Origin: an uncultured Alphaproteobacteria bacterium
GTDB lineage: Bacteria; Pseudomonadota; Alphaproteobacteria; SP197
Length of the DNA: 60,823 bases
Direction of reading: 5' to 3'
Assembly: GCA_938048755.1 (NCBI GenBank)
Contig: CALIUG010000218.1
Coordinates: forward strand, 1 to 60,823
In this document: piece after piece, positions 30,652 through 47,485 of the stretch
How the letters are laid out: each line of letters opens with the position of its first letter
Position numbering within the stretch: position 1 is the stretch's first letter
Made by a program: the position numbers and the translations under genes
The notes under the pieces: model-generated
Databases searched by the model: none
Told to the model about the DNA's origin: nothing
What the model saw: the letters and a program-made list of their open reading frames with translations, nothing else

Positions 30652-31827
30652 CTACTTGTACGGGTCAGCGGCGTCGCGCAGGCCGTCGCCCAGGAAGTTG
30701 AAGGCCAGCACGACGATGATCACCGGTACCACGGGCAGCATCAGCCAGGGGTAGAGGGCGACGACGTTGATGTTCTGGGCTTCGTTCAGCAGCACGCCCC
30801 AGCTGGTGATCGGCGGGCGCAGGCCCAGGCCCAGGAACGAGAGGGCGGTCTCGCCCAGGATCATGCTGGGGATCGAGAGCGTGGCCGAGGCGATCAGATG
30901 GCTGGTGAAGCTTGGCATCAGATGGCGGAAGATGACGCGCTTGGGTTTGGCGCCCATCAGCACGGCCGCGGTGGCGAAGTCTTCCTCGCGCAGGGCCAGC
31001 AGCTTGGAGCGCACGGCGCGCGCAAGCCCGGTCCAGTCGAACAGGCCCAGAATGATGGTGATGCCGAAATAGACCCAGATCGGACTCCAGGTCACCGGCA
31101 GGCTGGCCGAGAGCGCCATCCACAAGGGCAGTTCGGGGAAGCTGCGGATGATCTCGATCAGGCGCTGCACGGCAGAATCGATCCAGCCGCCGTAATAGCC
31201 CGAGAGACCGCCCAGAATGACCCCCAGCAGGAAGCTGATGGCGATGCCGATCAGGCCGACGGTGAGCGAAATCCGCGCGCCGTAGAGAATGCGCGAAAGC
31301 ATGTCGCGGCCCAGCCTGTCGGTCCCCAGAAGGAACAGCGTGCCGTCCTCTGCCGGGCAGATGATGTGGAAGCTACCTTCGATCATGCCCCAGAATTCGT
31401 AATCATCGCCCAGGCAGAAGAAGCGGATGGGCTGCACCTGCTCCTTGTTGGCCGTGTAGACGCGCTCCAGCGTTTCCATGTCCAGGCGGTAGTCGAAGCC
31501 ATAGACAAACGGGCGCACCAGCTCGCCCTCGTGGAAGATGCGCACCATCTGGGGCGGGGCATAAAGGAAGTCGGTGTTGCGTGAATGCAGGTTGTAGGGT
31601 GCCAGGATCTCCGAGATCAGGATCGATCCGAAGGTCATGATCAGCAGCACGCCCGACCAGACCGCAAGCTTGTGGCGGCGGAACTTCCACCACATCAGCG
31701 TCCACTGGTTGGCCAGATAGAACTTTTCCTGGGCCGGGGTCAGCACCTCGACCGCGTTGGCGTCCCAGGGCTCCTCGTTGACGTAACGCGGGATGTTGCC
31801 CGATGTGTTGGGTGTCGTGTCGGTCAT
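30652..31827 (-). CDS. Peptide/nickel ABC transporter permease (DppC/OppC-like)
   Basis: LLGTDRLGRDMLSR, EAA loop REEDFATAAVLMGA. Confidence 0.92.
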   Translation of the reverse strand: MTDTTPNTSGNIPRYVNEEPWDANAVEVLTPAQEKFYLANQWTLMWWKFRRHKLAVWSGVLLIMTFGSILISEILAPYNLHSRNTDFLYAPPQMVRIFHEGELVRPFVYGFDYRLDMETLERVYTANKEQVQPIRFFCLGDDYEFWGMIEGSFHIICPAEDGTLFLLGTDRLGRDMLSRILYGARISLTVGLIGIAISFLLGVILGGLSGYYGGWIDSAVQRLIEIIRSFPELPLWMALSASLPVTWSPIWVYFGITIILGLFDWTGLARAVRSKLLALREEDFATAAVLMGAKPKRVIFRHLMPSFTSHLIASATLSIPSMILGETALSFLGLGLRPPITSWGVLLNEAQNINVVALYPWLMLPVVPVIIVVLAFNFLGDGLRDAADPYK

Positions 31828-31828
31828 G

Positions 31829-32827
31829 TCAGTGCCCCGCTCCCCCGGCGAGCCGGATCCGGGGGTCGAGCACGGCCAGCAGCAGGTCGGAGATCAGCAC
31901 GCCGATCACGGTCAGGAAGGCCAGGCACATCAGGAACGAGCCGGCCAGGAACATGTCCTGGGTCTGGAGCGCGCGCAGCAGGATGGGGCCGGTGGTCGGC
32001 AGCGACAGCACGACCGAAACGATCACCGCGCCGGAAATCACCTGGGGCAGCAGGTTGCCGATATCGGCGATGAAGGGGTTGAGCGCCATGCGCAGCGGGT
32101 ACTTCACCAGCGCCTTGCCGGGCGAAAGGCCCTTGGCGCGTGCCGTCACGACATACTGCTTCTGGAGTTCATCCAGCAGGTTGGCGCGCAGACGCCGGAT
32201 CAGGCCCGCCGTGCCGGACGTGCCGATCACGACAACGGGAATCCACAGATGTTCCAGGATCGAGACGAACTTGCCCCAGGTCCAGGGCTGATCGACATAT
32301 TGCGGGTCCATCAGACCGCCGATCGATGTTCCGAACCAGACATTCGCCAGGAACAGCATGACCAGCGCGAGCAGGAAGTTGGGCGTGGCAAGGCCCAGGA
32401 ACCCCAGCAGGGTGAGCCCGTGATCGCCCCAGGAATACTGGTGGGTGGCCGAATAGACGCCGATCGGGAAGGCCACGATCCAGGTGAAGATGATCGTCGA
32501 ACCAGCCACGATGATGGTGAGGTAGAGGCTCTCGCCGATCACTTCGGCCACCGGCTTGTTGTATTCGAAGCTGATGCCCATGTTGCCTTGCAGCAGATCG
32601 CTCACCCAGATCAGGTATTGCTGCCAGACCGGCTTATCCAGGCCGAATTCCTCGGTCAGCACGGCAACCTGTTCCTTGCAGCTCGATTCCCCCTGGGCTT
32701 CACACTCGGCGATCATGGTCGAGAGGAAGTCGCCGGGCGGTAGCTGAATGATGATGAACGTGATCAGGCTGATGCCGATCAGCGTGGGCACCATCAGCAT
32801 GATGCGGTGTGCGAGATAACCGATCAT
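31829..32827 (-). CDS. Peptide/nickel ABC transporter permease (DppB/OppB-like)
   Basis: FGLDKPVWQQY, YVVTARAKGL, SGAVIV. Confidence 0.92.
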   Translation of the reverse strand: MIGYLAHRIMLMVPTLIGISLITFIIIQLPPGDFLSTMIAECEAQGESSCKEQVAVLTEEFGLDKPVWQQYLIWVSDLLQGNMGISFEYNKPVAEVIGESLYLTIIVAGSTIIFTWIVAFPIGVYSATHQYSWGDHGLTLLGFLGLATPNFLLALVMLFLANVWFGTSIGGLMDPQYVDQPWTWGKFVSILEHLWIPVVVIGTSGTAGLIRRLRANLLDELQKQYVVTARAKGLSPGKALVKYPLRMALNPFIADIGNLLPQVISGAVIVSVVLSLPTTGPILLRALQTQDMFLAGSFLMCLAFLTVIGVLISDLLLAVLDPRIRLAGGAGH

Positions 32828-33135
32828 GCCGCTTCTCCGGCGGCGAACAGAGGACATTCGAACGAAAGGCAGGAACGATTCTGGTGCCCGATCAAGGTCG
32901 GGACGTCAACGGCTACCCAGAGGACGTACTGTTGCCAGATCGGCTTCTCGAGGCGGTGTGCGACCTGGATGATTTCGATCTGTGCCGCGCAGTTCGATTC
33001 ACCGTGCGACTCGCATTCCGCAATCATTTTCTCAACCGGATCATCGCTGGCAAGCCTGATCGCAAACGCGATCAGGCTGACCCCGACCATGGTTGTTGCT
33101 GCGCGCGTCAGACGCTTTGCGATGGTTCGGATCAT
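32824..33135 (-). CDS. 103-aa stand-alone paralog of the DppB N-terminal domain
   Basis: MIAECESHGESNC...LEKPIWQQYVLWV vs permease MIAECEAQGESSC...LDKPVWQQYLIWV. ATGA overlaps at both ends. Confidence 0.7.
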   Translation of the reverse strand: MIRTIAKRLTRAATTMVGVSLIAFAIRLASDDPVEKMIAECESHGESNCAAQIEIIQVAHRLEKPIWQQYVLWVAVDVPTLIGHQNRSCLSFECPLFAAGEAA

Positions 33136-35036
33136 GGCCGCCCGTCCTCACCGTCGGTGTAGAAGAAGGTTTCGGGCTGGTACATGCCGAACTGCGCGCC
33201 GGGGTCCCAGTTGAAGATGCCATCGGCGGGGACGTTGTGCATGCGGTTGGTGACGACGACGGGCTGGAGCGTGCCAGCAACCAGGCCGATCGTGTAGACG
33301 CCCTCGGCATAGATCTCGAGAATCTCGTGCCAGATCTCGCTGCGGGCTTCCGGACTCTCGGCGCCGCGCCATTCTCCGTAGAGTTCCATCAGGTGCTTGG
33401 GCCCTTCCATGTCGACGGGTTCGCCTGATGCGCCGGAGGTCTCGTAATACTGGCCCCATTGCGGCCATTGCAGAAGCTGCTGGCTGGTCGGTGCATATTC
33501 GGCCGGGCTCATCTCGGAGGTCGGCAGGCCGTTCTCCGAGCCGAACGAGATCGCCATCACGGTTTCACCGGCAAAGATGCGGTTCCTCAGCACTTCGCGT
33601 TGCAGGGGTTTGGAGAAGACCTTGACGCCGGCTTCCAGCCAGGAATCGTGGATCAGCTCCAGAATGTCGGTTTCCTCGGGATCTTCGCCCGCGGTTTCCA
33701 CGATGATCTGCAGCGGGCGGCCGTCTGGCAGCAGGCGCAGGCCCTGACTGTCTCGTTCCGTCAGGCCCATCTCGTCGAGCAGACGGTTGGCTTCGTCAAG
33801 ATCAAAGGCGGCATAGGCGTCGCGGTAACCGGCTTCGTAAAGCGGTGAGGCTGGTAGCACCGTGTTCTGACCCTCGATGCCCAGGCCGTAATAGATCACC
33901 TGGTTGATCTCGTGGCGGTTGATCGCCAGCGACAGGGCGCGGCGGAAGCGGACGTCGCGCAGAACCTCGCGCCAGACCGGGTCGGAGACATTGAGGTTGG
34001 GGAACAGGGCAAGCTGGCTGCCGCGTGCGGTGCGCCACAGATTGACCGTGTAGTCGTTGTGCTCCTCGCCCTCCTTCAGGAAGGTGTAGTCGCTGAACGC
34101 CAGGCCGCGTGCCTGCAGGTCGGATTCGCCGGCCCAGGTCTTGAGCGGGATGAGCTTGGAATCGACCACGTTCATGAAGATCCGGTCGATATAGGGAAGC
34201 TGCTGACCCGCCGCATCGACCTTGTAGTAATAGGCATTGCGCTCGCCGATGAAACGCTGCGCCGGCGCCTCGGTCGTGATCGTCCAGGGCTGCAGCGTCG
34301 GCAGTTCGGGATTGTCGAACTTGTACATGTTGTCGACGGCGTTATGGAGCGAAGCCCAGCTTGTCTTGCCTTCCTCCTCGACCCACGCTTCGATCTGGGC
34401 CGTGTCGCCATGTTCGATGTGATACTGCTTCATGAAATGCGCAGGCCGGTAGATGAAGAGCGGCGCTGCGCTGGCCAGCACGGGCAGGAAGTCGGGATTG
34501 GGTGCGTGCCAGGTGTAACGCACCGTGGTCTCGTCGATGACCTCGAACACCGGTGGCTGGTCGTCGACCATCAGCAGGGTCGGCGGGCCCGCAGGGGCGA
34601 GTTCCTCGTTGTTGGCGACATCCTCCCACCAGTAGCGGAAGTCCTCGGAGGTGAACGGTTCGCCATCCGACCAGCGATGGCCCTCGCGAAGGTGGAAGGT
34701 GAAGATGCGGCCTTCCTCGACCTCATAGGATTCCAGGATGTCGGGAAGGATCTCCAGCTCGGTGTTGTAGGCCACCAGGCGGGCATAACCGAATACGACC
34801 AGCAGGCGGGTATCGCGGCTGCGGTTGATCAGCATGTTCCAGTTGCCGCCGTAGACACCGATTTCGCGGCCATCGTCCACGACATGGGGATTGTCGGGCA
34901 GGCGCTCGGCCATCGGCGGCATGATCACGGTATCGACCAGGGGCTGCCAATAGGGCACCTCGGTTGCCTGAGCAGCTGCCAGGTTCGGGGTTGCGCCGGC
35001 AATCAGGGCGGCTGCCAGGATCAGGCGTCGGATCAT
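33132..35036 (-). CDS. ABC transporter substrate-binding protein (family 5)
   Basis: Signal peptide [40 protein letters not shown]. Confidence 0.92.
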   Translation of the reverse strand: MIRRLILAAALIAGATPNLAAAQATEVPYWQPLVDTVIMPPMAERLPDNPHVVDDGREIGVYGGNWNMLINRSRDTRLLVVFGYARLVAYNTELEILPDILESYEVEEGRIFTFHLREGHRWSDGEPFTSEDFRYWWEDVANNEELAPAGPPTLLMVDDQPPVFEVIDETTVRYTWHAPNPDFLPVLASAAPLFIYRPAHFMKQYHIEHGDTAQIEAWVEEEGKTSWASLHNAVDNMYKFDNPELPTLQPWTITTEAPAQRFIGERNAYYYKVDAAGQQLPYIDRIFMNVVDSKLIPLKTWAGESDLQARGLAFSDYTFLKEGEEHNDYTVNLWRTARGSQLALFPNLNVSDPVWREVLRDVRFRRALSLAINRHEINQVIYYGLGIEGQNTVLPASPLYEAGYRDAYAAFDLDEANRLLDEMGLTERDSQGLRLLPDGRPLQIIVETAGEDPEETDILELIHDSWLEAGVKVFSKPLQREVLRNRIFAGETVMAISFGSENGLPTSEMSPAEYAPTSQQLLQWPQWGQYYETSGASGEPVDMEGPKHLMELYGEWRGAESPEARSEIWHEILEIYAEGVYTIGLVAGTLQPVVVTNRMHNVPADGIFNWDPGAQFGMYQPETFFYTDGEDGRP

Positions 35037-36913
35037 GCCGCGATCCCTTCCGGCTTTGCGCTGGCGCGCACGAAATGGCCGTTGCCCAGATCGATCATCT
35101 GCAGGGTCGAGCCCTCCGCAACCGTGAAAGGCTCGGGCCAAGCCGAGGGAATCGAGGCGCGGCCCGCCATCAGGGCGGTCAGGTCCAGCTTGCGGTCGGG
35201 GTTGGGCTCGGGCACGGCCGCCAGCAGGGCCTTGGTATAGGGGTGCACCGGATTCTTGAAGATGTCCTCGCGGCTGGCCTGTTCGACCAGACGTCCCGAA
35301 CACATCACGGCAATGCGGTCGGCCATGTAGTCGATGACCGCCAGGTTGTGCGAGATGAAGAGGTAGGTGAGTCCCAGTTCCTTCTGCAGGTCTTTCAGAA
35401 GGTTCAGGATCTGCGCCTGGATCGAGACATCCAGCGCACTGACCGGCTCGTCGCAGATCAGCAGTTCTGGCTCCAGCGCCAGGGCGCGGGCAATGCCGAT
35501 CCTCTGACGCTGCCCGCCGGAGAAGCTGTGGGGATAGCGGCGCAGATGGCGCACATCCAGGCCGACCAGACGCATCAGTTCCATGGCGCGCTCGGCGCGT
35601 TCGGCAGGGGTGCCGATCTTGTGGATCACCAGGGGCTCGGAAATGATGTCGAACACCGTCATGCGCGGGTTCAGCGATCCGAAGGGATCCTGGAAGATGA
35701 ACTGCACCTTGCGGCGGTAATCGAACAGCTTGTCGCCTTCCAGTGCGGCGATATCGACCGGTGTGCCCCGGTCGTTGAAGGTCACCGTGCCGGAATCGGG
35801 CGTCAGTGCCTTCATGATCATCTTGCTGGTCGTGGTCTTGCCGCAGCCTGACTCACCCACCAGACCCAGGCATTCGCCGCGGCGCACGTCAAAGCTGATG
35901 TCATCAACCGCCAGGTGCTGGGTTGATCCGCGCGCCAGCCAGCCCTTGTTGCGCACGCTGAAGGTCTTGGTCAGATGCTCGATGGTCAGCATCCGGTCAT
36001 CGGCGCCTTCGGGCCAGGCTTCGCGTTCCGGGCGTTTCAGGGCGGACCGGTCCTGCTTGATCTCGCGCAGCGGGATCAGGCGTTCGCCGGGTTTCATGTC
36101 GAACCGCGGCACCGCAGCCAAAAGACCCTTCAGATAGGGATGACGCGGATCACCGAAGATGTCCCGCAGACCGCCCTGCTCCATGACCTCGCCGTGGTAC
36201 ATCACGACCACGTCCTCGGCGACATTGGCCACCACGCCCAGATCATGGGTGATCATCAGCACGGCCATGCCCAGTTCGGCCTGCAGATCGGCAATCAGCT
36301 TCAGAATCTGCGCCTGGATCGTGACATCCAGCGCCGTGGTCGGCTCGTCGGCAATCAGCAGGCTGGGGCGGCAGACCAGCGCCATGGAGATCATGGCGCG
36401 CTGACGCAATCCGCCGGAGAGTTCAAAGGGATAGGCGCGCCAGGCCTTTTCCGGATCGGGGAACCCGACCAGGCGCAACATCTCGACCGTCAGTTCCTTG
36501 GCCTCGGGCTTGGAACAATTGCGATGGAGCAGAAGCGCCTCGCCCACCTGATCGCCCACGGTATGGAGCGGTGAAAGCGAGGTCATGGGTTCCTGGAAGA
36601 TGATCGAGATGCTGCCGCCACGGATCTGGCGCATCATCTTGCCGTCGGCGGGAAGCGCTACCAGATCGACCGGCGCGTCGTCGGGTTTTGCCGGGTCGTT
36701 GAACAGAACCTGGCCGCCCGTGATCTCGGCGTTCTGCGGCAGAATGCGCATCAGGGTCTGGGAAATGACGGTCTTGCCCGAACCGGATTCACCGACCAGG
36801 GCCAGCGTCCGGCCGGCAGGAATGGCAAAGCTGACGCCCTTGACGGCCTGCACTGCACCGTCGCCCACCAGGAACTGCACCCTGAGATCGCGGATATCGA
36901 CCAGCGGCGTCAT
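35033..36913 (-). CDS. Peptide ABC transporter ATP-binding protein, two fused NBDs (DppD/F-like)
   Basis: GESGSGKT / [16 protein letters not shown] / [11 protein letters not shown] motifs. Confidence 0.93.
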
Positions 36914-37473
36914 AGGTGATCGTCCGGCATGGTGCCCTGGCGCACGGCAAAGCCCATGGCGTCCAGATTGGCGAGCGTAACATCGTTCAGCGGCAATTCT
37001 CGGTCCTGGGCAGCCTCCATGGCAATCGCCACGACGGTATCAAATCCGTCGAGTGATGAATCCACCGTGATGGTGTTGCCCGTGCCCCGCAACTTCAGCT
37101 CCATCCAACTCTTCGACCCCGAAAGGTCCATACTGCCGCCATATCGATTCCGACGCATGGAATAGAAAGCAAGTTTCATTCCGGAAAGCTCTGACCAGCC
37201 TATGGTGCGCGCCAGCGGCCCCAGCGTTCTGATGCCGTTGGCCGAGATTTCAACACTGGTCATGTTTTTTACCAGCGTGCGCAAGCCGAAGACCGTAAAA
37301 ACCGCCCCGATAGCCAGAAGGATGTAGACCAAGACGCTGACAACCTCAATGAGGAGCAGCGGCGTGAAACAAATCAGCGCGCCCGCACCTGCACGGATGT
37401 AGTCACCCATCAGGACCTTTGTGTCATAGCGATGCAGGCTGGATTGATTCAAGACGGACTTCCGGCGGAACAA
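36910..37473 (-). CDS. Hypothetical membrane protein (two TM helices plus a soluble domain)
   Basis: Stop overlaps the ABC ATPase start. True start is probably downstream (~37446 or 37410). Confidence 0.7.
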   Translation of the reverse strand: MFRRKSVLNQSSLHRYDTKVLMGDYIRAGAGALICFTPLLLIEVVSVLVYILLAIGAVFTVFGLRTLVKNMTSVEISANGIRTLGPLARTIGWSELSGMKLAFYSMRRNRYGGSMDLSGSKSWMELKLRGTGNTITVDSSLDGFDTVVAIAMEAAQDRELPLNDVTLANLDAMGFAVRQGTMPDDHL

Positions 37474-38222
37474 AACACGTCGGACGCATCAAGCCACCGC
37501 GCCCGGGGATGATCGCGCACGAATGCGACAAATCTGTCAACAAAGGAACGCGTTTGGGCATCATGCACCCGATGATGGGTCATCATGCCGGTCGGTTCAC
37601 CGGCATCGGCCCCACCGCATCTGCGTGCCCGCAGGTGGTGGACGGCAGCCCTCAGGCACGGCGATTCGCCCGCAAACTCGCGCCCCGCCTTCCAGTTGAT
37701 AAGGTCGAGATGGACATTGGTCTGATGCAATCCCGACCGGATTGCCGTCTTGCGCGGCCCCAGGGTGGAAAGGCCCGTGAACCCCGCCTTGCCGAGCGCG
37801 ACCTCCACAGCCGGGTCGATTCGATTCCAGGGTGGCACCATGACCGGCAGGAATCGGGCGCCCAGGGTCGATTCCAGATGTGCCCTGCCGTTTGCCATCG
37901 CGTCAGCCAGGCCCGCAGACAGAGCCTCGTCACACAATTCCATCTTGCGCCGGTCGCCCTGTGTCCGGTCGGTGTGGCTGACACCATGCTGCAGGACGCG
38001 GCAGCCCGAATCGGCGGCCAGGGCGTCAGCAGATCGTGCCTCCAGCCAATCGGGCACCGTGGCCAGGGCCAGGGGAACGTCCAGTGCCTGACGCTGCGCC
38101 AGAAAACCATCCAGAAGGCCATCATCGGGCCCGGCATCGTCATCACGCCACCAGAACGTCGCGGGCTGGCTCTCGCTATCCCACTGGTCCAGTTCGTCGC
38201 TCAGGGTTTCCCAGTCAGACAT
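37449..38222 (-). CDS. Polysaccharide deacetylase-like (NodB/CE4-type) protein
   Basis: WWRDDDA, LQHGVSH, VPPWNRI, MTHH. Confidence 0.8.
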   Translation of the reverse strand: MSDWETLSDELDQWDSESQPATFWWRDDDAGPDDGLLDGFLAQRQALDVPLALATVPDWLEARSADALAADSGCRVLQHGVSHTDRTQGDRRKMELCDEALSAGLADAMANGRAHLESTLGARFLPVMVPPWNRIDPAVEVALGKAGFTGLSTLGPRKTAIRSGLHQTNVHLDLINWKAGREFAGESPCLRAAVHHLRARRCGGADAGEPTGMMTHHRVHDAQTRSFVDRFVAFVRDHPRARWLDASDVFCSAGSPS

Positions 38223-39369
38223 GGTCGATCCAGGTGCAAAGGCGTTCGGCACTGTACTGCGCACCATGAAGGTCAATCAGATCGCTTGAAAGCGGTGACA
38301 GGTCAAAGGCAGCGTCGACGGCCTGTGCCAGCGACCGGGGCGCAAGATCAACCTCATCAAGCACCATGACCGCGCCCATGGCGGCAAGCCTTCTGGCCCG
38401 TTCTGTCTGCTCGGTCTCACCCTCGCCGACATAGGGCACAATCACGGCCCGGGCGCGTGCGGCGATCAAATCGGTGATCGTGTTGTAGCCGCCCTGTGAA
38501 ACCGACACGGCGCAACGCGCCAGAAGGTCACGGAAATCGGCACGGTTGTTTTCAACGATGATGCCTGGCTCGGTGTCTCTGACGGTCGGCTCGCCGGGCA
38601 GGCGGGCATGGGGTTCGCCCGAAAGCAGTCGCCAGGTCCGGTTGGCTGCGTGTTCCGAGAGCGGGCGTGCCTGTTTCGCCGCTTCCAGCAGCGCCGTACC
38701 GGTCGTGCCGCTGCCTGCCGAAACGATGACCTCACCGTCACCATCGCCCGTCATGTCCTCGGGTAATGTCCAGTCGGCGGCAATATAGCCGGTATGGACC
38801 AGGCGCTGGCCCAGGGCGGCGGCGTGCGGAAAGGTCTCACCGAAGCCGACCAGGCGCGGATCGCCGTGCACCAGGATGTGGTCGTACCGTTCCTGCGCCA
38901 GCGCCAGCATCGTGTCGAACCGTTCGGGCTTCGACGGCTGCTGGAGGATATCGCGCACCGATGAGACCGTGACGGGCGGGCGCGCCAGATCATCGGCGCG
39001 GTCCAGAAGACCAAGCACTTCGTGGCGCAACTGGCGGCGGCCGAAGGGAAAGGTCTCGGTGACCAGAGCCGCAGGCTGCAGGGCCTCCAGCAAGTCGCTC
39101 AGGCGTGCCCGGCGTTCCGCCATCAGCGCCTCGCCGGAGGGAACACCCTGTTGATCCACAAGGCTGGAAAATCCTTCGTCGGCGGCGCGCAGGGCGGGTA
39201 GCTGAACCAGGCGCGCATCACCAAGGTCCAGGTTCGAAAGAGGAAAGCCGCCCGACGCCACCACGGCGTCCACGCCACGGGCTGCCAGCGCGCGGGCGAT
39301 CGCTGCGGTGCGGCGCAGATGGCCGCTGCCCAACAGGTGTTGCACCCAGAACAGAACGACAGGTCTCAT
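38215..39369 (-). CDS. GT-B glycosyltransferase (GT28 C-terminal-like)
   Basis: QHLLGSGHLRR, VSQGGYNT, ETEQTERA. Confidence 0.85.
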   Translation of the reverse strand: MRPVVLFWVQHLLGSGHLRRTAAIARALAARGVDAVVASGGFPLSNLDLGDARLVQLPALRAADEGFSSLVDQQGVPSGEALMAERRARLSDLLEALQPAALVTETFPFGRRQLRHEVLGLLDRADDLARPPVTVSSVRDILQQPSKPERFDTMLALAQERYDHILVHGDPRLVGFGETFPHAAALGQRLVHTGYIAADWTLPEDMTGDGDGEVIVSAGSGTTGTALLEAAKQARPLSEHAANRTWRLLSGEPHARLPGEPTVRDTEPGIIVENNRADFRDLLARCAVSVSQGGYNTITDLIAARARAVIVPYVGEGETEQTERARRLAAMGAVMVLDEVDLAPRSLAQAVDAAFDLSPLSSDLIDLHGAQYSAERLCTWIDHV

Positions 39370-39962
39370 GACGGCGGCCCCAACCGATGCACGGCCGGTT
39401 CGCCCAGAGACGGTGACCCGTCTTGCCGCAGTTCCAGCATCAGCGCGCCGTCACGGGGCAGTTTCAGGGGCGGTGGGCCCATCATGTCCCAACCGGTAGC
39501 GAGCGTCAGGGCCACGCGCATCACGCCGCGGTGGGTCACTACCAGCGTATCGGTTCCCGCCCGGGCAACATCGGTCAGAAACCGCGCCAGCCGTCCGGCC
39601 ACCTCGCGGGGGCTCTCGCCACCATCGGGGCGGAAATCGAGGCCCCGGGCCTCGTTGGCGGCCATCGTCGCGCCACCGCGGCTGCGCAGGGCAGGCAGAG
39701 TTTCCCCCGCCCAGCTTCCCCAATCCATCTCGATCAGGCGTGCGTCGCTGCGGCCATGGTCCAGACCCAGAAGCCTGGCGGTATCGCGGGTGCGTTGCAG
39801 GGGGCTGGTCACGACGTCCCAGGATTGCCAGTCCCTGGGTACCCGCCAGTCCGCGACCATGCGCCTGCCGGCTTCGGACAGGGGCGTGTCGGTGCGGCCT
39901 TGAATGCGGCCTGCCTCGTTCCAGGTCGTGGGCGCGTGGCGGATCATGGCAAGCCGGGTCAT
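39366..39962 (-). CDS. Histidine phosphatase family protein
   Basis: IRHAPT, TSPLQR, LIEMDWG, VTHRG. Confidence 0.88.
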   Translation of the reverse strand: MTRLAMIRHAPTTWNEAGRIQGRTDTPLSEAGRRMVADWRVPRDWQSWDVVTSPLQRTRDTARLLGLDHGRSDARLIEMDWGSWAGETLPALRSRGGATMAANEARGLDFRPDGGESPREVAGRLARFLTDVARAGTDTLVVTHRGVMRVALTLATGWDMMGPPPLKLPRDGALMLELRQDGSPSLGEPAVHRLGPPS

Positions 39963-41077
39963 CGGCTGTGCCTTGCCAGCGTGATCGCGCGATCCAGCGC
40001 CAGAGCGGCACTGGCCATGCTGTGGCGCACCGCGACATGATCGGCGGCTGCCGCACCCATGGCGGCGCGGCGCAGGGGGTCATCGATCAGGCGTTGCACG
40101 CCCGCAGCAAAGGCCCCTGGGTCACCTTCCTTCACCAACAGCGCGGTCTTGCCGTCCCGGGCAATCTCGGGAACGCCGCGCGCACGTCCGGCAACCAGGG
40201 GCAGGCCTGCTGCCTGGGCGCCCAGCAGGGCCATGCCATAGGCCTCGTTGATCGCGGGCCACAGGCAGAGGTCACAGCCGACCAGCATGCCCGGAAGGCT
40301 GCGCGGGCTGATCTGTCCGGCAAACCGGGCGCGCCCCTTCAGCAGGGCTTCCACCTCAGCCCGGCAGGGTCCGTCACCGATCACCAGCAGGTCCATGGCC
40401 TCAGGCGCGATGTGTTCCAGGGCCTCGGCCAGGACGCGATAGGACGCCATCTTGTCGCCATCGCGCATCATCGCGACGACCACGGCCAGGGGCCTGTCGG
40501 GTGACACGCCGAACCGTTCCGTCAGACGCCTGCGCGCGGGGCCGGGCTTCTGACGCTGATAAGGTGCAACATCGACAAAGGGGGTCAGGGGTACCAGGCG
40601 TTCACCTGGAATGCCGGCGCGTTTGAGACCGTCGGCATCTTCGGACGTCACGGGCATCAGTGCATCGGCGCGCGCCAGAGCTGCCAGGGAACGGGCATAA
40701 CCATCCGACCAGGCTCCCTTGCGCTGCTTGGGTGCGATCGAGGGTTCGGCCACCACATAGGGAAGCCCCAGGGCGTCGGCCAGGCGCGGACCCAGGTGAT
40801 CCGGCGCCTTGTGATAGAGATGATAGGTGAACCACAGGTCGGGCGGCGCATCGCACCAGCGCTGTTCCAGCCCCTGCGCCTGTTTCAGACCTTCTGCGGC
40901 AATCGCGCCCTGACGATCGCTGTCCCCGGCCTCGTCATAGGCCCGCAGGGTGGAAGCCAGCACGACCTCATGCCCCATGGATTCCAGGGTTTTCACGATC
41001 AGGCGCGCGACCGTGCGGTCGCCGGACGGCACACGATGGGTCGGGGCTTTCAGGGGCGCATAAAAGGCGATCCTCAT
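39959..41077 (-). CDS. GT4-family glycosyltransferase
   Basis: EAYGMALLGAQAAGLP, RGVPEI. Confidence 0.88.
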   Translation of the reverse strand: MRIAFYAPLKAPTHRVPSGDRTVARLIVKTLESMGHEVVLASTLRAYDEAGDSDRQGAIAAEGLKQAQGLEQRWCDAPPDLWFTYHLYHKAPDHLGPRLADALGLPYVVAEPSIAPKQRKGAWSDGYARSLAALARADALMPVTSEDADGLKRAGIPGERLVPLTPFVDVAPYQRQKPGPARRRLTERFGVSPDRPLAVVVAMMRDGDKMASYRVLAEALEHIAPEAMDLLVIGDGPCRAEVEALLKGRARFAGQISPRSLPGMLVGCDLCLWPAINEAYGMALLGAQAAGLPLVAGRARGVPEIARDGKTALLVKEGDPGAFAAGVQRLIDDPLRRAAMGAAAADHVAVRHSMASAALALDRAITLARHSR

Positions 41078-41122: not shown

Positions 41123-42373
41123 CTAGTTCAGATCGTCCGATAACCCGAATCGCCGCGCCAGATCGTCGATGCCGCCGGTCATGGAAAACTTGGTGCGCAC
41201 GCGCACCTCTCCGGCCTTGCCCAGACGTTCGCGCAAATCAGGATCGGTGATGGCACGCTGCAGGCTTGCCGCCAGTGCCTTCGGGTCACCCGGAGCAGAG
41301 AGCAGGCCGTTGACGTCGTGGGCGATCAGTTCGGGCACGGCGGAAACCTCGGTCGCAACAACGGCAAGACCCTGGCTCTGGGCTTCCATCAAGACGTTGG
41401 GCAGGCCGTCGCGATCACCATCCCCGGCAATCTTGGAGGCCAGCACGAAGAGGTCGCTGGCGTGATAGGCCTGCAGCACTGCCGTCTGGGGTTGGGAGCC
41501 CAGCCACGTGATGCGCTCCGCGATTCCGGCTTTCCGTGCCTGCTCCTGCAGCGCATCACGCAACGCTCCGCCGCCGATATGGGTGAGATGCCAGTGCAGG
41601 TCGCCGGGCAACCGGGCCAGCGCGTCGATCAGGTCGTCATACCCCTTCTTGGGCACGGCGCGCCCGACCGAGACCAGGGCAACCGGGTTGGCAGGATCGC
41701 TGCCGTCGCGCTTCTCCTTCCTTTCCGGGGGTGGCGGCCAGCGTTTCAGATCAAGGCCGTGATAAACCAGAGAGACCCGGTCATCGGGTGCCAGTGCGGC
41801 CAGATGGCCACGGTTGCTTGCGGTGCAGGTGACCAGCCACTGGCAGTCGCCCAGCTTCTCGGAAAGTTCCCAGTCGGGCGAGGTATAGATGTCCTTGGCA
41901 TGGGCCGAGGCGCTCCAGGGCAGGCCCGTCATCATCGCGGCGTAACGGGTCACCGAAGACGGCGTGTGCAGGAAATGGGCGTGGAGCTGGCGCACATGGG
42001 GTGCGGTCTCGCAGGCCAGGACACAGGCCTGACCGAACCGGCGAATGCGGTTGGCGGTGCGGTCACGTTTGAGATCGCGCCACCACTGACGCCATGCCGC
42101 AGCGTAACCGGGCAGGCGCCGGGCCTGCCACCAGGCGCGCAGCACCCGCAGGGGCTCCTGATAGAGGTATTCGGGAAGATAGCTGACCGGTGCGGTGATC
42201 TCGTCATGGACGGGATGGGTTGTCCTGTCCGTGGGATGACGCAGCGAAACGATCCGGATCGGCAGGCCCCGGCGCTGCAGTGCCAGAATCTCCTGGGCAA
42301 TGAAGGTTTCCGAAAGACGCGGGTATCCCTTCAGAATGAACGCAACCGGTGCGTCGCCGTCTGGCGCTGTCAC
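41123..42373 (-). CDS. GT4-family glycosyltransferase
   Basis: YPRLSETFI, HAHF, KKGY, RDGLPNVLMEA. Confidence 0.9.
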   Translation of the reverse strand: MTAPDGDAPVAFILKGYPRLSETFIAQEILALQRRGLPIRIVSLRHPTDRTTHPVHDEITAPVSYLPEYLYQEPLRVLRAWWQARRLPGYAAAWRQWWRDLKRDRTANRIRRFGQACVLACETAPHVRQLHAHFLHTPSSVTRYAAMMTGLPWSASAHAKDIYTSPDWELSEKLGDCQWLVTCTASNRGHLAALAPDDRVSLVYHGLDLKRWPPPPERKEKRDGSDPANPVALVSVGRAVPKKGYDDLIDALARLPGDLHWHLTHIGGGALRDALQEQARKAGIAERITWLGSQPQTAVLQAYHASDLFVLASKIAGDGDRDGLPNVLMEAQSQGLAVVATEVSAVPELIAHDVNGLLSAPGDPKALAASLQRAITDPDLRERLGKAGEVRVRTKFSMTGGIDDLARRFGLSDDLN

Positions 42374-42388: not shown

Positions 42389-43660
42389 TCAGCGGGCTGT
42401 CGTGCGGGTGCCGTTGTCGCCCGCCACGGTCAGCAGGTTCTGGCGTTTTTCCTGGCCCAGCTTCAGGGCGGTGCGTCCTTCGGCCAGATGCATGGCAACC
42501 AGCCGGTTGACGTTCTCAAGGCCGTCCAGCAGCCCGGGAACAACGACCTGGCTGGGCCGGCGTTGCTGCCTGAGCTGACGAATCGCAGTCGCCATGGCCT
42601 CGGGTTTCTCTGCCATGTCCTCGGTCAGCATGGAAACCAGGCCCAGTTCCTGGGCGCGACTGGCGCGGATCAGCTGTTCCATTCGCGGTACCTGGCGCGG
42701 CACGATCAGCGCGGGTTTGTCGAAGGAGAGAATTTCGCAGAACGTGTTGTAGCCGCCCATGGCGACGACGCCTGACGCACGCGCCATCAGGGTTTCCAGA
42801 TGGGCATTGAAAGTAATGGCCGTGACATGGTCCAGTCTGTCGACCCGATCCTGAAACGCAGTCTTGACCTCGGGCTGCATGAACGGGCCAAAGACGATCA
42901 GGGCCGGAATGGTCGGGGCGCGTTTGCACTCATAGGCATTGAGCATCCAGTCGACGAGCAGGTCGCCGTCGCCGCCGCCGCCTGTGGTGACCAGGACAAA
43001 GGGCTCCTCGATGCCGTCGGGCAGTCCGTCATCATGCAGGTTCTGCGGCACGGACCGTTCGAGATAGCCGGTATAGACCATCTTGCGGCGCACCGATTGC
43101 GGCACGTCGATCTCTTCGAGCGGATCGTGGATCTGCGGCAGGCCATAGACCCAGATGTCGTCATAAAGGTCGCGCAGGGCAGGCATTGCTTTCTTGCGCC
43201 GCCATTCGGCCTTCAGCAGGGCGGGATCGTCCATCACGTCGCGCAGACCCAGAATGATGCGGGTGCCGCGTTTCTTGAGCATTTCGATGGTTTCGCGCAT
43301 CTCGCCGCGCAGACCCAGCGGTTCCTTGTCGACCAGCAGAATGTCGGGATCGAAGATATCTGCGGTGTGTTTCATGATCGATTCACGCATCGCCATGGTC
43401 TGGTCGGTATCAAGCAGCAGGTTGAGCGAGGTGTATTCGCCGTTTCGCAGCTTGATGACGCCGGGAACCCGCACGAAATCAACGCGCGCGCGGAAATCGA
43501 AGCTGCCGATGATGGGTGAGCCCGAAAGGATCAGGACGGTCAGATCCTCGACCGATCCCACCATGGAATGCGCGATGGCTCTGCACCGTCGCAGATGTCC
43601 CAGTCCAAAGCTGTCGTGACTGTAAATCAGGACGCGCGGACGCGTTTTTTTGCTGGCCAT
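42389..43660 (-). CDS. GT-B glycosyltransferase, paralog of 38215-39369
   Basis: YSHDSFGLGHLRR, TGGGGDG, AMGGYNT, EQLIRA. Start at ATG 43660. Confidence 0.85.
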   Translation of the reverse strand: MASKKTRPRVLIYSHDSFGLGHLRRCRAIAHSMVGSVEDLTVLILSGSPIIGSFDFRARVDFVRVPGVIKLRNGEYTSLNLLLDTDQTMAMRESIMKHTADIFDPDILLVDKEPLGLRGEMRETIEMLKKRGTRIILGLRDVMDDPALLKAEWRRKKAMPALRDLYDDIWVYGLPQIHDPLEEIDVPQSVRRKMVYTGYLERSVPQNLHDDGLPDGIEEPFVLVTTGGGGDGDLLVDWMLNAYECKRAPTIPALIVFGPFMQPEVKTAFQDRVDRLDHVTAITFNAHLETLMARASGVVAMGGYNTFCEILSFDKPALIVPRQVPRMEQLIRASRAQELGLVSMLTEDMAEKPEAMATAIRQLRQQRRPSQVVVPGLLDGLENVNRLVAMHLAEGRTALKLGQEKRQNLLTVAGDNGTRTTAR

Positions 43661-43808
43661 GGCAGTCCCCGCCGCTTGCCCCTGGAGCAAACTATGACAC
43701 AGCGGGCCATTTCGCGAAAGCGGGGCCGAAAACTGCGCATTCCTCAAACCGTGTTCTTGGGCTAAGGTCGTCGTTCGTTGGGGGTTCTGGGAGTCGCTGT
43801 TCGTCCGC

Positions 43809-46523
43809 ATGGAACGCAGCATCTACAAGTTTATCTTTCGCTTTTCCAAGCGCGAGCAGGTGTTCATCCTTTTGTTCACCGTGCTTTCGCTGCCGTTTTA
43901 CTATGTCTCGCTCGATATCCCCAAACTGATCGTCAACAACGTGCTTTCCGATCAGGTGACCGAGGCTGATGCCTCCGTTGCGAACCTGGATCTGGGCATG
44001 GTTGCCGCAGCCGAAGACATCCGGTCCTTCTCGCTGTTCGGGTATGACATTCTCGATATGGAGCGCCTGACGCTGCTGGGCATCTATTGCGGGATGTTCC
44101 TGGGGCTGGTCCTGATCAACGGTGGCTTCAAGTATTTCATCAACGTCTACAAGGGTCTGCTGGGCGAACGCATGTTGCGCCGGCTGCGCTATCAGCTGTT
44201 CAGCCGCATCATGCGCTTTCCCCTGCCCCATTTCCGCCGGGTCAGTTCCGGTGAGCTGATCCCCATGGTGACCCAGGAGGTCGAACCCCTGGGCGGTTTC
44301 ATCGGGGATGCTCTGGCGCTGCCGTTTTACCAGGGCGGTCTGCTGATCACCGCGCTTATCTTCATCTTCATGCAGGACTTCTGGATGGGGCTTGCCTCAA
44401 TCTCGCTTTATCCCATGCAGGGGTGGCTGATCCCCAAGCTGCAGCGCAAGGTAAACCTGCTGGGCAAGGAGCGCGTGAAGGAAGTGCGCAAGGTCTCCGA
44501 GCGGATTGCCGAGACCGTGCAGTCGGCCGAAGAGATGCACGCCAACGGCATGGCGCGCTGGGAGCTGGCCGAATTCACCTCCCGCATGGGCCGGATCTTT
44601 GAGATTCGCTATGCGATCTACAACAAGAAGTTCTTCATCAAGTTCCTGAACAACTTCCTGGCCCAGCTCACACCGTTTTTCTTCTTTGCCATCGGCGGTT
44701 ACTTCGTCATTCAGGGTTCGCTTTCGCTGGGTGGTCTGGTTGCCGTGCTGGCCGCCTACAAGGATCTCCAGCCGCCCTGGAAGGAACTGCTCAACCACTA
44801 CCAGATCCGCGAGGACGCCAAGATCAAATACGATCAGGTCGTCGCCCAGTTCGCGCCCGCCGGCATGCGCGAAGAGGAGGTCGTCGTCGGCGAGGTGGCG
44901 CCCGAACCCTTCAACGGCGCGCTGACGACGAGCAATCTGCGTTATGACGAGGATGGCGAGGTCCTGATCGACGGCTTCAATGTCGAGATCGCGCCGGGCC
45001 AGCACATCGCTCTGGTCGGTGGGCCAACCAGTTCCAAGGACCGCGCGGTCATGCTGCTCGCGCACCTGCTCGATCCCGCCAGTGGCAAGTTGCGTTACGG
45101 TGATGCCGAAGCCCAGACCATGCCCGAGGTCGTGACGGGCACGCAGATCGGCTTTGTCGGACCAGCCACCTCGCTGTTCTCCGCATCCCTGATGGATAAC
45201 GTGATCTACGGTCTGCGCCAGGCGCCCAGGGCGCCGCGTGATGCCGGTGATGACAAGGCCAGGAAGGAAACGGAACGCCAGTTGTCCGAGGCAGCCAAGA
45301 CCGCCAACAGCGCCGATGATGCCTTCGCAGACTGGATCGATCTGGAGCGGGCAGGTGCGGCCAACCGCGAAGAACTGATCGAAGCGGTGCGCCATGCGCT
45401 TTCCGTCGCTGACATGGAAGACGACGTCTATCAGCTCGGTCTGCGCGGCAGGCTTGACCCTGAAACACGGCCCGAGGCCGCCAAACGTCTTCTGGAAGCG
45501 CGCAGCCTTCTGGAATCGCGCCTGAAGGAAGACAGCTACCGTGGTCTGGTCGAGCCGTTCGACCGGGATGCCTACAACACCAATGCCACGGTCGGTGAAA
45601 ATCTGCTGTTCGGCACGCCAGTGGGCGAGGATTTCGACCTCGATCGCCTGCCCGAGAACGAATATGTCATGAGCGTGCTGGCCAAGGTCGGACTGGTCGA
45701 CGACTTCCTCTCGATCGGTCACGAAGTCGCCCAGACCATGGTTGAACTGTTCGCCGACCTGCCGCCCGACCATGAGTATTTCGGCCAGTTCTCCTTCATC
45801 TCGCTTGATGATCTGCCGGAATTCCAGGCGCTGCTGCGCAAGGTTGAGCGCGACGGTCTGGAAGAGCTTGAAGAGAACGAGCGCCTCATGTTCATGGCGC
45901 TGCCGTTCAAGATGGCGCCTGCCCGGCACCGACTTGGCCTGATCGACAATTCGATGCAGGAGCGTCTGCTGGAGGCACGCCGCGCCTTTGCCGAGGACCT
46001 GCCCGAAGCGCTCAAGGGCTCGGTCGAGTTCTTTGATCACGATCTCTACAACACGGCTTCCTCGCTCCAGGACAACATCCTGTTCGGCAAGCTTGCCTAT
46101 GGCCGTGCCCAGGCCCAGACCAAGATCGGCGAACTGATTTCCGACGTGATCGAAAGCCTGGAGTTGCGCAGCACGGTGGTCGAGGTCGGCCTTGATTTTG
46201 AGGTCGGTATCGGCGGCGCAAGACTGTCCTCGGCACAGCGCCAGAAGACCGCCATTGCCCGTGCTGTTCTCAAACGCCCACAAATGATTGTTCTCAGTGA
46301 GGCAACAGCGGCATTGGATGGGTCGGCCCAGACCACCATATTGAAGAATATCCGGGAAGAGTTCTCTGGCCGTACCGTAATCTGGGCAATGCACCGTCCA
46401 AGCCAGGCCAAGGATTTTGATGAAGTTCTTGTCATGGCCGATGGCAAGATCGTCGAAAAGGGGACGTTCGACGACCTGATGGAGAATAAGGCGGTTCTCG
46501 CGGATCTGATTGGCGCGGAGTAA
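43809..46523 (+). CDS. ABC exporter-type TMD-NBD fusion (904 aa) with a large NBD insertion and degenerate ATPase motifs
   Basis: ABC TMD, Walker A region GGPTSSKD, signature LSSAQRQK, Walker B IVLSEAT, H-loop WAMH. Confidence 0.85.
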   Translation: MERSIYKFIFRFSKREQVFILLFTVLSLPFYYVSLDIPKLIVNNVLSDQVTEADASVANLDLGMVAAAEDIRSFSLFGYDILDMERLTLLGIYCGMFLGLVLINGGFKYFINVYKGLLGERMLRRLRYQLFSRIMRFPLPHFRRVSSGELIPMVTQEVEPLGGFIGDALALPFYQGGLLITALIFIFMQDFWMGLASISLYPMQGWLIPKLQRKVNLLGKERVKEVRKVSERIAETVQSAEEMHANGMARWELAEFTSRMGRIFEIRYAIYNKKFFIKFLNNFLAQLTPFFFFAIGGYFVIQGSLSLGGLVAVLAAYKDLQPPWKELLNHYQIREDAKIKYDQVVAQFAPAGMREEEVVVGEVAPEPFNGALTTSNLRYDEDGEVLIDGFNVEIAPGQHIALVGGPTSSKDRAVMLLAHLLDPASGKLRYGDAEAQTMPEVVTGTQIGFVGPATSLFSASLMDNVIYGLRQAPRAPRDAGDDKARKETERQLSEAAKTANSADDAFADWIDLERAGAANREELIEAVRHALSVADMEDDVYQLGLRGRLDPETRPEAAKRLLEARSLLESRLKEDSYRGLVEPFDRDAYNTNATVGENLLFGTPVGEDFDLDRLPENEYVMSVLAKVGLVDDFLSIGHEVAQTMVELFADLPPDHEYFGQFSFISLDDLPEFQALLRKVERDGLEELEENERLMFMALPFKMAPARHRLGLIDNSMQERLLEARRAFAEDLPEALKGSVEFFDHDLYNTASSLQDNILFGKLAYGRAQAQTKIGELISDVIESLELRSTVVEVGLDFEVGIGGARLSSAQRQKTAIARAVLKRPQMIVLSEATAALDGSAQTTILKNIREEFSGRTVIWAMHRPSQAKDFDEVLVMADGKIVEKGTFDDLMENKAVLADLIGAE

Positions 46524-46547
46524 CACGATGACTACGGAGGCACGGCC

Positions 46548-47000
46548 ATGAGCCTGCAACAAGATGTCGAACTGATGCGCAACATTCCCCTGTTCGCCAA
46601 GATCGAACCCAGCAAGCTGAAGCTGCTGGCGTTCACGGCCGAACGGCTGACCTTTGGCCAGGGCGATCTTGTCTGCAAACAGGGCGATGAAGGTGATTCG
46701 GCCTACATCATCATCGACGGCGAGGCCGACGTCATCGTCGACACCGCCAACGGCGAGGTCACGGTCGCAACGCTGAAGAAGAACGACTTTCTGGGCGAAA
46801 CCGCCATTCTCTGTGACGTGCCGCGTACCGCCACGGTCAAGGCAAGGAGCGATCTTGAGACCCTGATGATTTCCAAGGATCTCTTTTTCCAGCTGGTCGG
46901 CCAGTTCCCGTCCATGTCGATCGAGATCATGCGTGAGCTCGCACGTCGCGTGGAGCGCACCACCGTGCAACTGCGCGAAGCGGTCTCCCAGCAGGCATGA
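46548..47000 (+). CDS. Stand-alone cyclic-nucleotide-binding domain protein
   Basis: QGDEGDSAYII, FLGETAILCDVPRTATV. No HTH. Confidence 0.9.
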   Translation: MSLQQDVELMRNIPLFAKIEPSKLKLLAFTAERLTFGQGDLVCKQGDEGDSAYIIIDGEADVIVDTANGEVTVATLKKNDFLGETAILCDVPRTATVKARSDLETLMISKDLFFQLVGQFPSMSIEIMRELARRVERTTVQLREAVSQQA

Positions 47001-47485
47001 GCCGTCTCGACAGCGTCATCCGCAGGCTGGAGGCCCAGCGTGCCTGTCTGGGCCGTGCTTGCGATCTGATTGCCGATCTTGACGGGCCCGTCCTGGAACT
47101 GGGGCTGGGTAACGGGCGCACTTATGATCACCTGCGTGAGATCCTGCCATCGCGCGCGATCTACTGCTTCGACCGCCAGATTGCCGCGCACCCCGACTGC
47201 ATTCCCGATGACGATCACATGTTTCTGGGTGACCTCAGCGAAACCCTGCCCATGGCCGTGGATCGCCTGGGCCGGAGTGCTGTTCTTGCCCATGTCGATA
47301 TCGGTTCGGGTGATGAAGAGGCCAGCCGCGCCCTGGGTGTCTGGCTGGCCGATGAACTTCCCGCGCTTCTTGCGCCAGGCGCATTGGTGGTGAGCGATCA
47401 GCCGGTGCCGCACGCTGCATGGCAGACCCTGGAGCTGCCCGCCGGCGTGGCTTCGGGACGGTATTTCATGCAGCGGGTTGCCTGA
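46997..47485 (+). CDS. Small class I SAM-dependent methyltransferase-like protein
   Basis: VLELGLGNGRTYDHLR. ATGA overlap with the cNMP gene. Confidence 0.8.
   Translation: MSRLDSVIRRLEAQRACLGRACDLIADLDGPVLELGLGNGRTYDHLREILPSRAIYCFDRQIAAHPDCIPDDDHMFLGDLSETLPMAVDRLGRSAVLAHVDIGSGDEEASRALGVWLADELPALLAPGALVVSDQPVPHAAWQTLELPAGVASGRYFMQRVA

Follow-up and report, generated by a model that had tools for sequence, protein, structure and literature searches.

An undescribed ABC exporter-fold family of Alphaproteobacteria with a non-canonical ATP site, a triplicated segment in the nucleotide-binding domain and a cyclic-nucleotide-binding-type partner

The window analysed here, a 60,823-nucleotide stretch of contig CALIUG010000218.1 (assembly GCA_938048755.1) from an uncultured Alphaproteobacteria bacterium, encodes an ATP-binding cassette (ABC) protein of unusual construction, followed by a small protein with a cyclic-nucleotide-binding (CNB) domain. 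The ABC protein belongs to an undescribed family, a literature search having found no paper describing it. Every member examined has an ATP site that departs from the consensus, the nucleotide-binding domain (NBD) contains a segment in triplicate, and a CNB domain is encoded either downstream or in the same chain. With somewhat better than even confidence, the sequence data are best explained by a homodimeric translocator under cyclic-nucleotide control, one that likely still binds nucleotide and for which hydrolysis would not be the conserved driving principle. The two proteins are encoded as follows.

43809 to 46523, plus strand: degenerate ABC exporter-fold half-transporter of 904 amino acids, with a six-helix transmembrane domain (TMD) and a split NBD, the reading frame being intact over 904 codons
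46548 to 47000, plus strand: stand-alone CNB protein of 150 amino acids without a DNA-binding domain, starting 24 nucleotides after the ABC stop codon

The ABC protein is a type IV (ABCB-like) exporter-fold half-transporter. Pfam places ABC_membrane (PF00664) at residues 89–314 (E 6.5e-20) and matches ABC_tran (PF00005) in two stretches (E 2.9e-10), and both halves of the NBD align in a profile search of the PDB. The NCBIfam exporter models MsbA, NHLM, HepA and NdvA also cover the protein in two pieces, at approximately residues 96–472 and 750–900, with scores far below their curated equivalog cut-offs (201.9 versus 602 bits for MsbA, 189.4 versus 853 for NHLM, 173.8 versus 725 for HepA and 131.7 versus 733 for NdvA). 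An AlphaFold2 model of the full-length protein has a mean predicted local distance difference test (pLDDT) score of 82.5, rising to around 90 in the NBD region, and shows six long helices; as a whole it matches ABCB1, TmrAB and TM287/288 in Foldseek searches. Neither a C39 peptidase nor an N-terminal CNB domain was detected by Pfam in the 904 residues. An initial annotation of the stretch, made from the letters and open reading frames (ORFs), had singled out the odd ABC protein and the protein next to it, predicted to bind cyclic nucleoside monophosphates (cNMPs), and both features proved real by Pfam and direct translation.

The ATP site of the window protein is non-canonical at several of its defining positions, and direct translation bears out the motif readings of the initial annotation, namely GGPTSSKD, LSSAQ and a Walker B without its Asp.

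45018 to 45041, plus strand: Walker A variant GGPTSSKD, residues 404–411 by direct translation, with K410 kept
46224 to 46301, plus strand: signature LSSAQ (residues 806–810) and the Walker B that follows it (...MIVLSE, read as IVLSE), by direct translation
46392 to 46394, plus strand: H-loop His862

In the Walker A, the Gly preceding the Lys is replaced by Ser and the Ser/Thr following it by Asp, a departure from the GxxGxGK[ST] consensus. Walker B departs from the consensus of hhhhD plus Glu, having Ser in place of Asp while keeping the catalytic Glu, E831. The signature retains its Ser and Gln, with both Gly residues replaced; variants of the LSSAQ type are known in both active and inactive sites. 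The Q-loop position is Pro rather than Gln (VGPAT), and the D-loop ALD is present. To describe all ATPase motifs as degenerate, as had been done, was therefore an overstatement: the description holds for Walker A, Walker B and the Q-loop, whereas the protein retains K410, E831 and H862, together with the D-loop and both the Ser and the Gln of the signature.

This pattern is retained in an alignment of 120 sequences of the close subfamily, whose Walker A consensus is GxxGSGK[E/D], with Lys in 113 and Arg in 7. The residue after the Lys is Glu or Asp in 103 (86%) and Ser or Thr in four. No member has the Walker B Asp, the position being occupied by Ser (97), Ala (13), Asn (9) or Cys (1), and the Q-loop Gln is found in 39. 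The catalytic Glu at the position of E831 is present in 114 sequences and the H-loop His in 112, while the signature motif is LSxAQ, its Ser and Gln being among the positions kept at 93–100%. GGPTSSKD itself is the most degenerate Walker A of the clade and occurs in two of the 120 sequences. Conservation is highest in the membrane domain (0.82), with the insert that splits the NBD scoring 0.63–0.72, like the rest of the NBD. Read from the alignment, the subfamily has a conserved non-canonical site and not noise, and because K410, E831 and H862 are kept at 93–95%, it probably still binds nucleotide.

More than 100 full-length orthologues (880–980 amino acids, 51–91% identity) were found in alphaproteobacterial genomes and metagenome-assembled genomes, and conservation over this number means that the motif pattern is the product of neither chance nor decay. 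At a presence threshold of E ≤ 1e-100, the family was matched in 93 of 301 evenly sampled Alphaproteobacteria genomes, in nearly all cases as a single copy, and all 23 positives of a phylum-wide sample were Alphaproteobacteria. Named carriers include Azospirillum, Thalassobaculum, Nisaea, Inquilinus and Sneathiella, and members of around 37% identity are found on the chromids and plasmids of Rhizobium, Sinorhizobium, Ensifer and Ruegeria. Three genomes belonging to one family (G417, G459 and G479) carry two or three paralogues, mostly of the length of the CNB-fused forms described below (1008–1080 amino acids).

Beyond the subfamily, a profile search of 1.84 billion representatives returned 150 members of the deep family, all with E < 1e-190, and 130 full-length sequences were analysed. 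A canonical ATP site is found in none of the 130. Of these sequences, 38 have the Walker A Lys (46 have Arg) and 42 the Walker B Asp (60 have Asn), while a catalytic Glu is found in 28 and an H-loop His in 8. Lys is combined with Glu in 19 (14.6%), and with both Glu and His in four. On a tree built without the ATP-site columns, state changes number at least 20 for the Lys, 21 for the Glu, 25 for the Walker B Asp and 7 for the His. Mean conservation in the deep family is 0.60 in the TMD versus 0.35 in the region from the signature to the end, and the family hallmarks are EVEPLGGFIGD (coupling helix 1/TM3), KFFIKFLNN and three xNLLFG repeats. Across the family the ATP site is under relaxed constraint, with hydrolysis apparently not what is conserved, and as losses at the site are frequent in the deep family, the window protein belongs to its least-decayed branch.

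The second departure from known half-transporters lies within the NBD, where the segment comprising a strand, the Q-loop and an ‘xNLLFG’ helix is triplicated, giving an NBD with two extra helical-subdomain-like units.

45225 to 46058, plus strand: NBD insert of about 280 residues (approximately 473–750), between the Q-loop and the true helical subdomain
45114 to 45212, plus strand: repeat copy 1, residues 436–468, comprising the strand, the Q-loop position (Gln replaced by Pro) and a DNVIYG segment
45531 to 45614, plus strand: repeat copy 2, residues 575–602, ...VEPFD..YNTNATVGENLLFG
46005 to 46088, plus strand: repeat copy 3, residues 733–760, ...VEFFD..YNTASSLQDNILFG, running into the genuine helical subdomain

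In the PDB profile search, positions 461 and 783 of the profile map 24 residues apart in P-glycoprotein, which puts the insert at approximately 280–300 residues. The several hundred extra residues that the initial annotation had seen splitting the NBD are thus present at this size; their nature, as two more copies of the NBD's own helical-subdomain segment, had escaped it. All three repeats share the strand, a Q-loop-like turn and the ‘xNLLFG’ helix, and in hhalign comparisons copies 2 and 3 match with a probability of 96.4% (E 1e-9) and copies 1 and 3 with a probability of 84% (E 8e-6). The site of the Q-loop Gln is occupied by copy 1 only, and the true signature motif is reached from copy 3 only. 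Modelled alone by AlphaFold2, the insert has a pLDDT of 86.6, and its residues 586–730 superpose on the helical subdomains, from Q-loop to signature, of many ABC NBDs including those of MRP1, CFTR, PCAT1, MsbA and TmrAB (Z 4–5.2, about 70 aligned residues, root-mean-square deviation 2.5–3 Å). Most of the 50 structure-search matches land on one part of one fold, and the agreement of this shared target region with the sequence repeats identifies the insert as extra helical-subdomain units. The structural evidence bears on residues 586–730, with the first unit (approximately 473–575) barely covered, and no new fold is claimed.

In one homologue (P0016, alignment columns 690–740) a fourth tandem copy is found, in which around 50 residues are duplicated exactly; the repeat region is therefore still expanding in some lineages. 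In two genomes the ABC gene appears as two ORFs (G260:C23:22449-25138 and G051:C15:62660-65236), broken near residues 466–508, at the start of the insert; the break would be due either to a frameshift or to natural splitting of the gene where two domains meet.

The third feature is the CNB partner. Pfam cNMP_binding (PF00027) covers residues 35–118 of the 150-residue protein (E 1e-20) and is the sole domain found, which confirms the earlier identification of a stand-alone cNMP-binding protein downstream. The phosphate-binding cassette FLGETAILCDVPRTATV is intact, and among 80 orthologues, in which the cassette reads FxGExAILCDVPRTATV, the GE and PRTA positions are at least 95% conserved, a degree of conservation that fits genuine cyclic-nucleotide binding. 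No helix-turn-helix of the CRP/FNR type was found in the protein, with the CRP and FtrB models scoring far below cut-off and matching the N-terminal part only; a weak match to TIGR03896 was obtained with NCBIfam. Conservation of the locus was counted over 80 related loci, in 79 of which the CNB gene lies immediately downstream of the ABC gene. In distant members the CNB domain is fused in frame at the C-terminus of the ABC protein, as in a 1052-residue member with Pfam cNMP_binding at 930–1015. Such fusions occur in 40 of 131 deep representatives, the fused and unfused forms interchanging at least 10 times on the tree, and no signal of an association between CNB fusion and ATP-site decay was seen on the deep-family tree. 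In-frame fusions are strong Rosetta-stone evidence for a physical partnership, and together with the adjacency in 79 of 80 loci they support the functional coupling to the adjacent cNMP protein that had been suggested initially. Judged by gene order and fusion, the CNB partner is obligate, being either downstream or fused, and this constant association with a cyclic-nucleotide sensor makes second-messenger control of the ABC protein probable.

The ABC and CNB genes, with a methyltransferase gene behind them, are divergently transcribed from a long, 12-gene operon on the minus strand, whose order is a GT28-like glycosyltransferase (GT), two GT4 enzymes, a histidine phosphatase, a second GT28-like enzyme, two unknown proteins, a fused OppD/F, an SBP_bac_5 protein and two permeases. 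Frequencies below refer to the 80 loci, and redA and redB to genes annotated in Rhizobium etli.

46997 to 47485, plus strand: small S-adenosylmethionine-methyltransferase-like protein (Methyltransf_17, Pfam E 5e-54)
42389 to 43822, minus strand: GT28-C-like glycosyltransferase, orthologue of R. etli redA, in 76 loci and 51.5% identical to annotated redA
41123 to 42373, minus strand: GT4 glycosyltransferase, orthologue of R. etli redB, in 74 loci and 52.6% identical to annotated redB
39959 to 41077, minus strand: second GT4 glycosyltransferase, in 68 loci
39366 to 39962, minus strand: histidine-phosphatase superfamily protein, in 64 loci
38215 to 39369, minus strand: second GT28-C-like glycosyltransferase (redA paralogue), in 75 loci and 38% identical to the third R. 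etli glycosyltransferase
36910 to 38276, minus strand: two overlapping, coupled ORFs of 275 and 187 amino acids, conserved between the importer ATPase and the glycosyltransferases
30652 to 36913, minus strand: Opp/Dpp-type ABC importer of the same operon, with a fused double ATPase, a 723-residue SBP_bac_5 protein and two permeases
27569 to 28921, plus strand: membrane-anchored class III adenylate/guanylate cyclase, just beyond the importer end of the cluster

The start of the Methyltransf_17 gene overlaps the stop of the CNB gene (ATGA), so that the two are translationally coupled; it is found downstream in 53 loci and is absent from the rhizobial clusters. The 275- and 187-residue ORFs are present in 64 and 60 loci, respectively, and gave no Pfam or NCBIfam match. 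The importer ATPase, OppDF, is the best-conserved gene of the cluster, with 60–87% identity in 63 loci; within the importer genes at 33132 to 36913 (minus strand) the fused double ATPase has 626 residues, and the SBP_bac_5 protein is unusually long. As to the product of the glycosyltransferase operon, NCBIfam gave only sub-threshold matches of the MshA/BshA/EpsE type and no assignment, and literature searches returned no papers for COG4671 and nothing relevant for redA or redB. The longest ORF of the redA-like glycosyltransferase overlaps the start of the ABC gene by 14 nucleotides on the opposite strand; because homology begins only at around residue 55 (MASKK...), the true start is probably an internal Met near 43660, giving a divergent promoter gap of about 150 bp.

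The cluster has a counterpart in rhizobia. Plasmid pA of R. etli CIAT 652 is annotated, in order, with cyaAa, four ABC genes for oligopeptides, redA, redB, a glycosyltransferase, a ‘multidrug ABC’ gene and a ‘transcriptional regulator’. The ‘multidrug ABC’ gene is 36.6% identical to the window ABC protein, and the ‘transcriptional regulator’ is the CNB protein, at 52% identity, an annotation unlikely to be right since the CNB protein has no DNA-binding domain. The window glycosyltransferases GT28a, GT1b and GT28b are orthologues of redA, redB and the third R. etli glycosyltransferase, and the same gene order was read by tblastn on a Sinorhizobium meliloti megaplasmid. By these identities and gene orders, the window cluster, with its importer of the Opp type, its glycosyltransferases of the redA/redB type and its ABC and CNB genes, is the orthologue of the opt-red cluster of R. 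etli. The opt-red cluster reportedly matters for Rhizobium symbiosis and stress resistance, and a 2007 paper by Vos et al. (Environ Microbiol 9:1665, cited in PMC6331556) deals, by its title, with the R. etli cluster.

Of 20 sampled relatives, 7 have a full-length orthologue of the window cyclase at the corresponding position, with 49–77% identity versus 33% for the best paralogue in its own genome, which has 12 cyclase genes, one of them within the window. A different cyclase, cyaAa, lies directly upstream in the Rhizobium clusters, at their opposite end. More distant ABC–CNB pairs sit in unrelated contexts, with BipA/EamA or HemD/HemY neighbours and without glycosyltransferases or importer; the core unit is therefore the pair itself, its link with glycosyltransferases and importer being a trait of the subfamily.

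In the mechanism proposed, the ABC protein would act as a homodimer and the cyclase of the cluster would make cAMP or cGMP, which the small CNB protein would bind before docking on the enlarged NBD. Docking would control NBD closure, and with it the switch of the membrane domain between its inward and outward states. The cargo may be a product or substrate of the Red glycosyltransferase or Opt pathway, its translocation being gated by the second messenger, and in the subfamily the nucleotide that is probably still bound at the non-consensus sites might have a structural or licensing role, or might be turned over slowly. A precedent is the ABC exporter HetC, which has a CNB-type domain that is required in vivo (PMC10986499).

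Several points weigh against this scheme. K410, E831 and H862 are under clear purifying selection in the subfamily (93–95%), as expected with ATP use, and the window subfamily could still possess an ATPase that functions, if in an unusual way. That the CNB protein touches the insert is pure conjecture, and the insert superposes weakly on any one target (Z ~5). The cyclase adjoins the cluster in only about a third of the relatives examined, and the cargo is not to be deduced family-wide, because the distant ABC–CNB pairs lack glycosyltransferases and importer. As to the ligand of the CNB domain, the CNB-type domain of HetC bound ppGpp, not cAMP (PMC10986499).

A bolder form of the same idea, put forward tentatively and on balance doubtful, is that the family gave up the ATP-hydrolysis power stroke altogether, and that a CNB subunit on the triplicated helical subdomain would gate the exporter membrane domain, yielding a cyclic-nucleotide-gated translocator or channel fed by its own cyclase. 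In that case signalling may be connected with the traffic of envelope glycans or peptides in Alphaproteobacteria, both free-living and symbiotic. The initial annotation had likewise envisaged a nucleotide-gated receptor or channel regulated by the adjacent cNMP protein instead of a pump. Its interpretation is upheld in part, for the coupling to the cNMP protein, the lack of a canonical heterodimer partner and an ATP site relaxed across the family; its view that a homodimer would probably not hydrolyse ATP stays a conjecture for the window protein, whose K410, E831 and H862 argue for nucleotide still being bound, and a CFTR- or SUR-like role as channel or receptor would follow by analogy alone.

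The alternative that survives best, although it is considered unlikely, is a true ATP-driven exporter with a rewired Mg2+ site, in which the Walker A Asp or Glu would stand in for the Walker B Asp, the CNB protein would only modulate the rate, and the cargo would be a glycoconjugate of the glycosyltransferase operon. Such an exporter would account for the retention of K410, E831, H862 and the signature Ser and Gln at 93–100% in the subfamily, where the Walker A position is Glu or Asp in 86% and the Walker B position is other than Asp in 100%. Raw counts in the deep family also lean towards a swap of Mg ligands: members with a Walker A Ser/Thr have the Walker B Asp in 19 cases versus 12 without it (all Asn), and those with a Walker A Asp/Glu have it in 12 versus 35 with Asn or Ser/Ala/Cys. 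Comparison of independent pairs showed these traits opposed 5.8 times versus 0.9, and three deep members have both K-[ST] and D-E, lacking the His alone. After correction for relatedness, however, the covariation is not significant (median p 0.125 in the pair test), and the swap is retained as an explanation only within this alternative. The four subfamily members with a Walker A Ser/Thr still lack the Walker B Asp, and in the window protein the Gly preceding the Lys is replaced by Ser and the Q-loop Gln is missing. Moreover, Lys, Glu or His has been lost in most of the deep family, so that hydrolysis cannot be the conserved requirement of the family.

Quite improbable is a membrane-anchored signalling or regulatory subunit that translocates nothing and would, by analogy with SUR, pass the cNMP signal to the Opp-like importer or to the RedA-type glycosyltransferases. 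The family-wide degeneracy of the ATP site and the tight co-conservation of the subfamily pair with the importer (ATPase 60–87% identical) and the glycosyltransferases are in its favour, and the SUR analogy of the initial annotation points the same way. Conservation within the protein, however, peaks in the membrane domain, at 0.82 in the subfamily and 0.60 in the deep family, with invariant coupling-region motifs, and for this reason a working conformational machine fits; the distant pairs without importer or glycosyltransferases also indicate that the pair can act alone.

An ordinary heterodimeric exporter subunit, its degenerate site complemented by a canonical partner encoded elsewhere, is very improbable, even though degenerate sites are usual in heterodimeric type IV exporters and both TM287/288 and TmrAB appear among the structural matches. 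The window organism's genome, which is 92.7% complete, has no paralogue with this architecture, its best other half-transporters being only 21–24% identical in the TMD and without the insert, and no ABC exporter gene adjoins in the window or in the 80 related loci. With nearly all of the 93 positive genomes also being single-copy, the absence of a canonical heterodimer partner was borne out by genome search, locus and copy number alike. Heterodimers keep one consensus site, whereas no family member offers one (0 of 130), and a heterodimer partner was accordingly rejected after the search of the genome and the 80 loci. Finally, although the window Walker A is the most degenerate of its clade (GGPTSSKD in 2 of 120), a decaying gene or annotation artefact is hardly credible, being refuted by conservation: the 904-codon frame is intact, over 100 full-length orthologues share 51–91% identity, conservation of the insert equals that of the remaining NBD, and the AlphaFold2 model is confident.

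ABC exporters are the textbook example of alternating access powered by ATP, and to our knowledge degenerate ATP sites are found almost only in heterodimers that retain one good site. A putatively homodimeric family found in roughly one in three of the Alphaproteobacteria sampled, with Azospirillum, Rhizobium and Sinorhizobium among its carriers and every member examined non-consensus, would thus be a natural experiment on the role of the NBD once hydrolysis is no longer selected. It would also provide a direct route from cAMP or cGMP to membrane transport in bacteria. Two uncharacterised genes, ABC and CNB, are thereby assigned to the opt-red cluster, and the family has hosts that are genetically tractable.

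Of the characterised systems, the homodimeric type IV half-transporters (MsbA and others) are the best matches of the window protein in both sequence and structure. MsbA, Sav1866, NdvA/ChvA and the core of PCAT1 share with it a six-helix ABC_membrane domain and one NBD, encoded by a single gene without a partner; in comparison with the MsbA type, the window protein has a non-canonical Walker A, Walker B and Q-loop, approximately 280 extra NBD residues, and an obligate CNB partner. Non-consensus ATP-site residues in an exporter fold are shared with TM287/288, TmrAB, BmrCD, MsRv1273c/72c and CFTR/SUR, but these heterodimers and CFTR/SUR keep one consensus site, whereas both sites in a homodimer of the window protein would be non-consensus and identical. 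In CFTR, cAMP controls gating through PKA; in the window system, regulation would instead be by direct binding of the CNB protein, not phosphorylation, and the architecture is not ABCC-like.

An ABC exporter tied to a CNB-type domain, as in the window pair, is also found in HetC of Nostoc PCC 7120 and in the cNMP-associated bacteriocin exporters of the NHLM/PCAT type, the context to which TIGR03896 belongs. In HetC the CNB domain is N-terminal, a C39 peptidase is present and a catalytic residue of the ATPase is essential, while the window family lacks the peptidase, carries its CNB domain on a separate protein or at the C-terminus, and combines a degenerate ATP site with a triplicated helical subdomain. 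Relative to the opt-red genes of R. etli, the window cluster adds a GT4 enzyme, the phosphatase and the two unknown genes, with the ABC/CNB pair divergently transcribed; published work on opt-red, as far as was found, concerns the importer and red genes and not the ABC/CNB pair. An exporter-type membrane domain that works without ATP hydrolysis is known from SbmA/BacA, which have no NBD, whereas the ABC protein of the window keeps one that is both enlarged and conserved.

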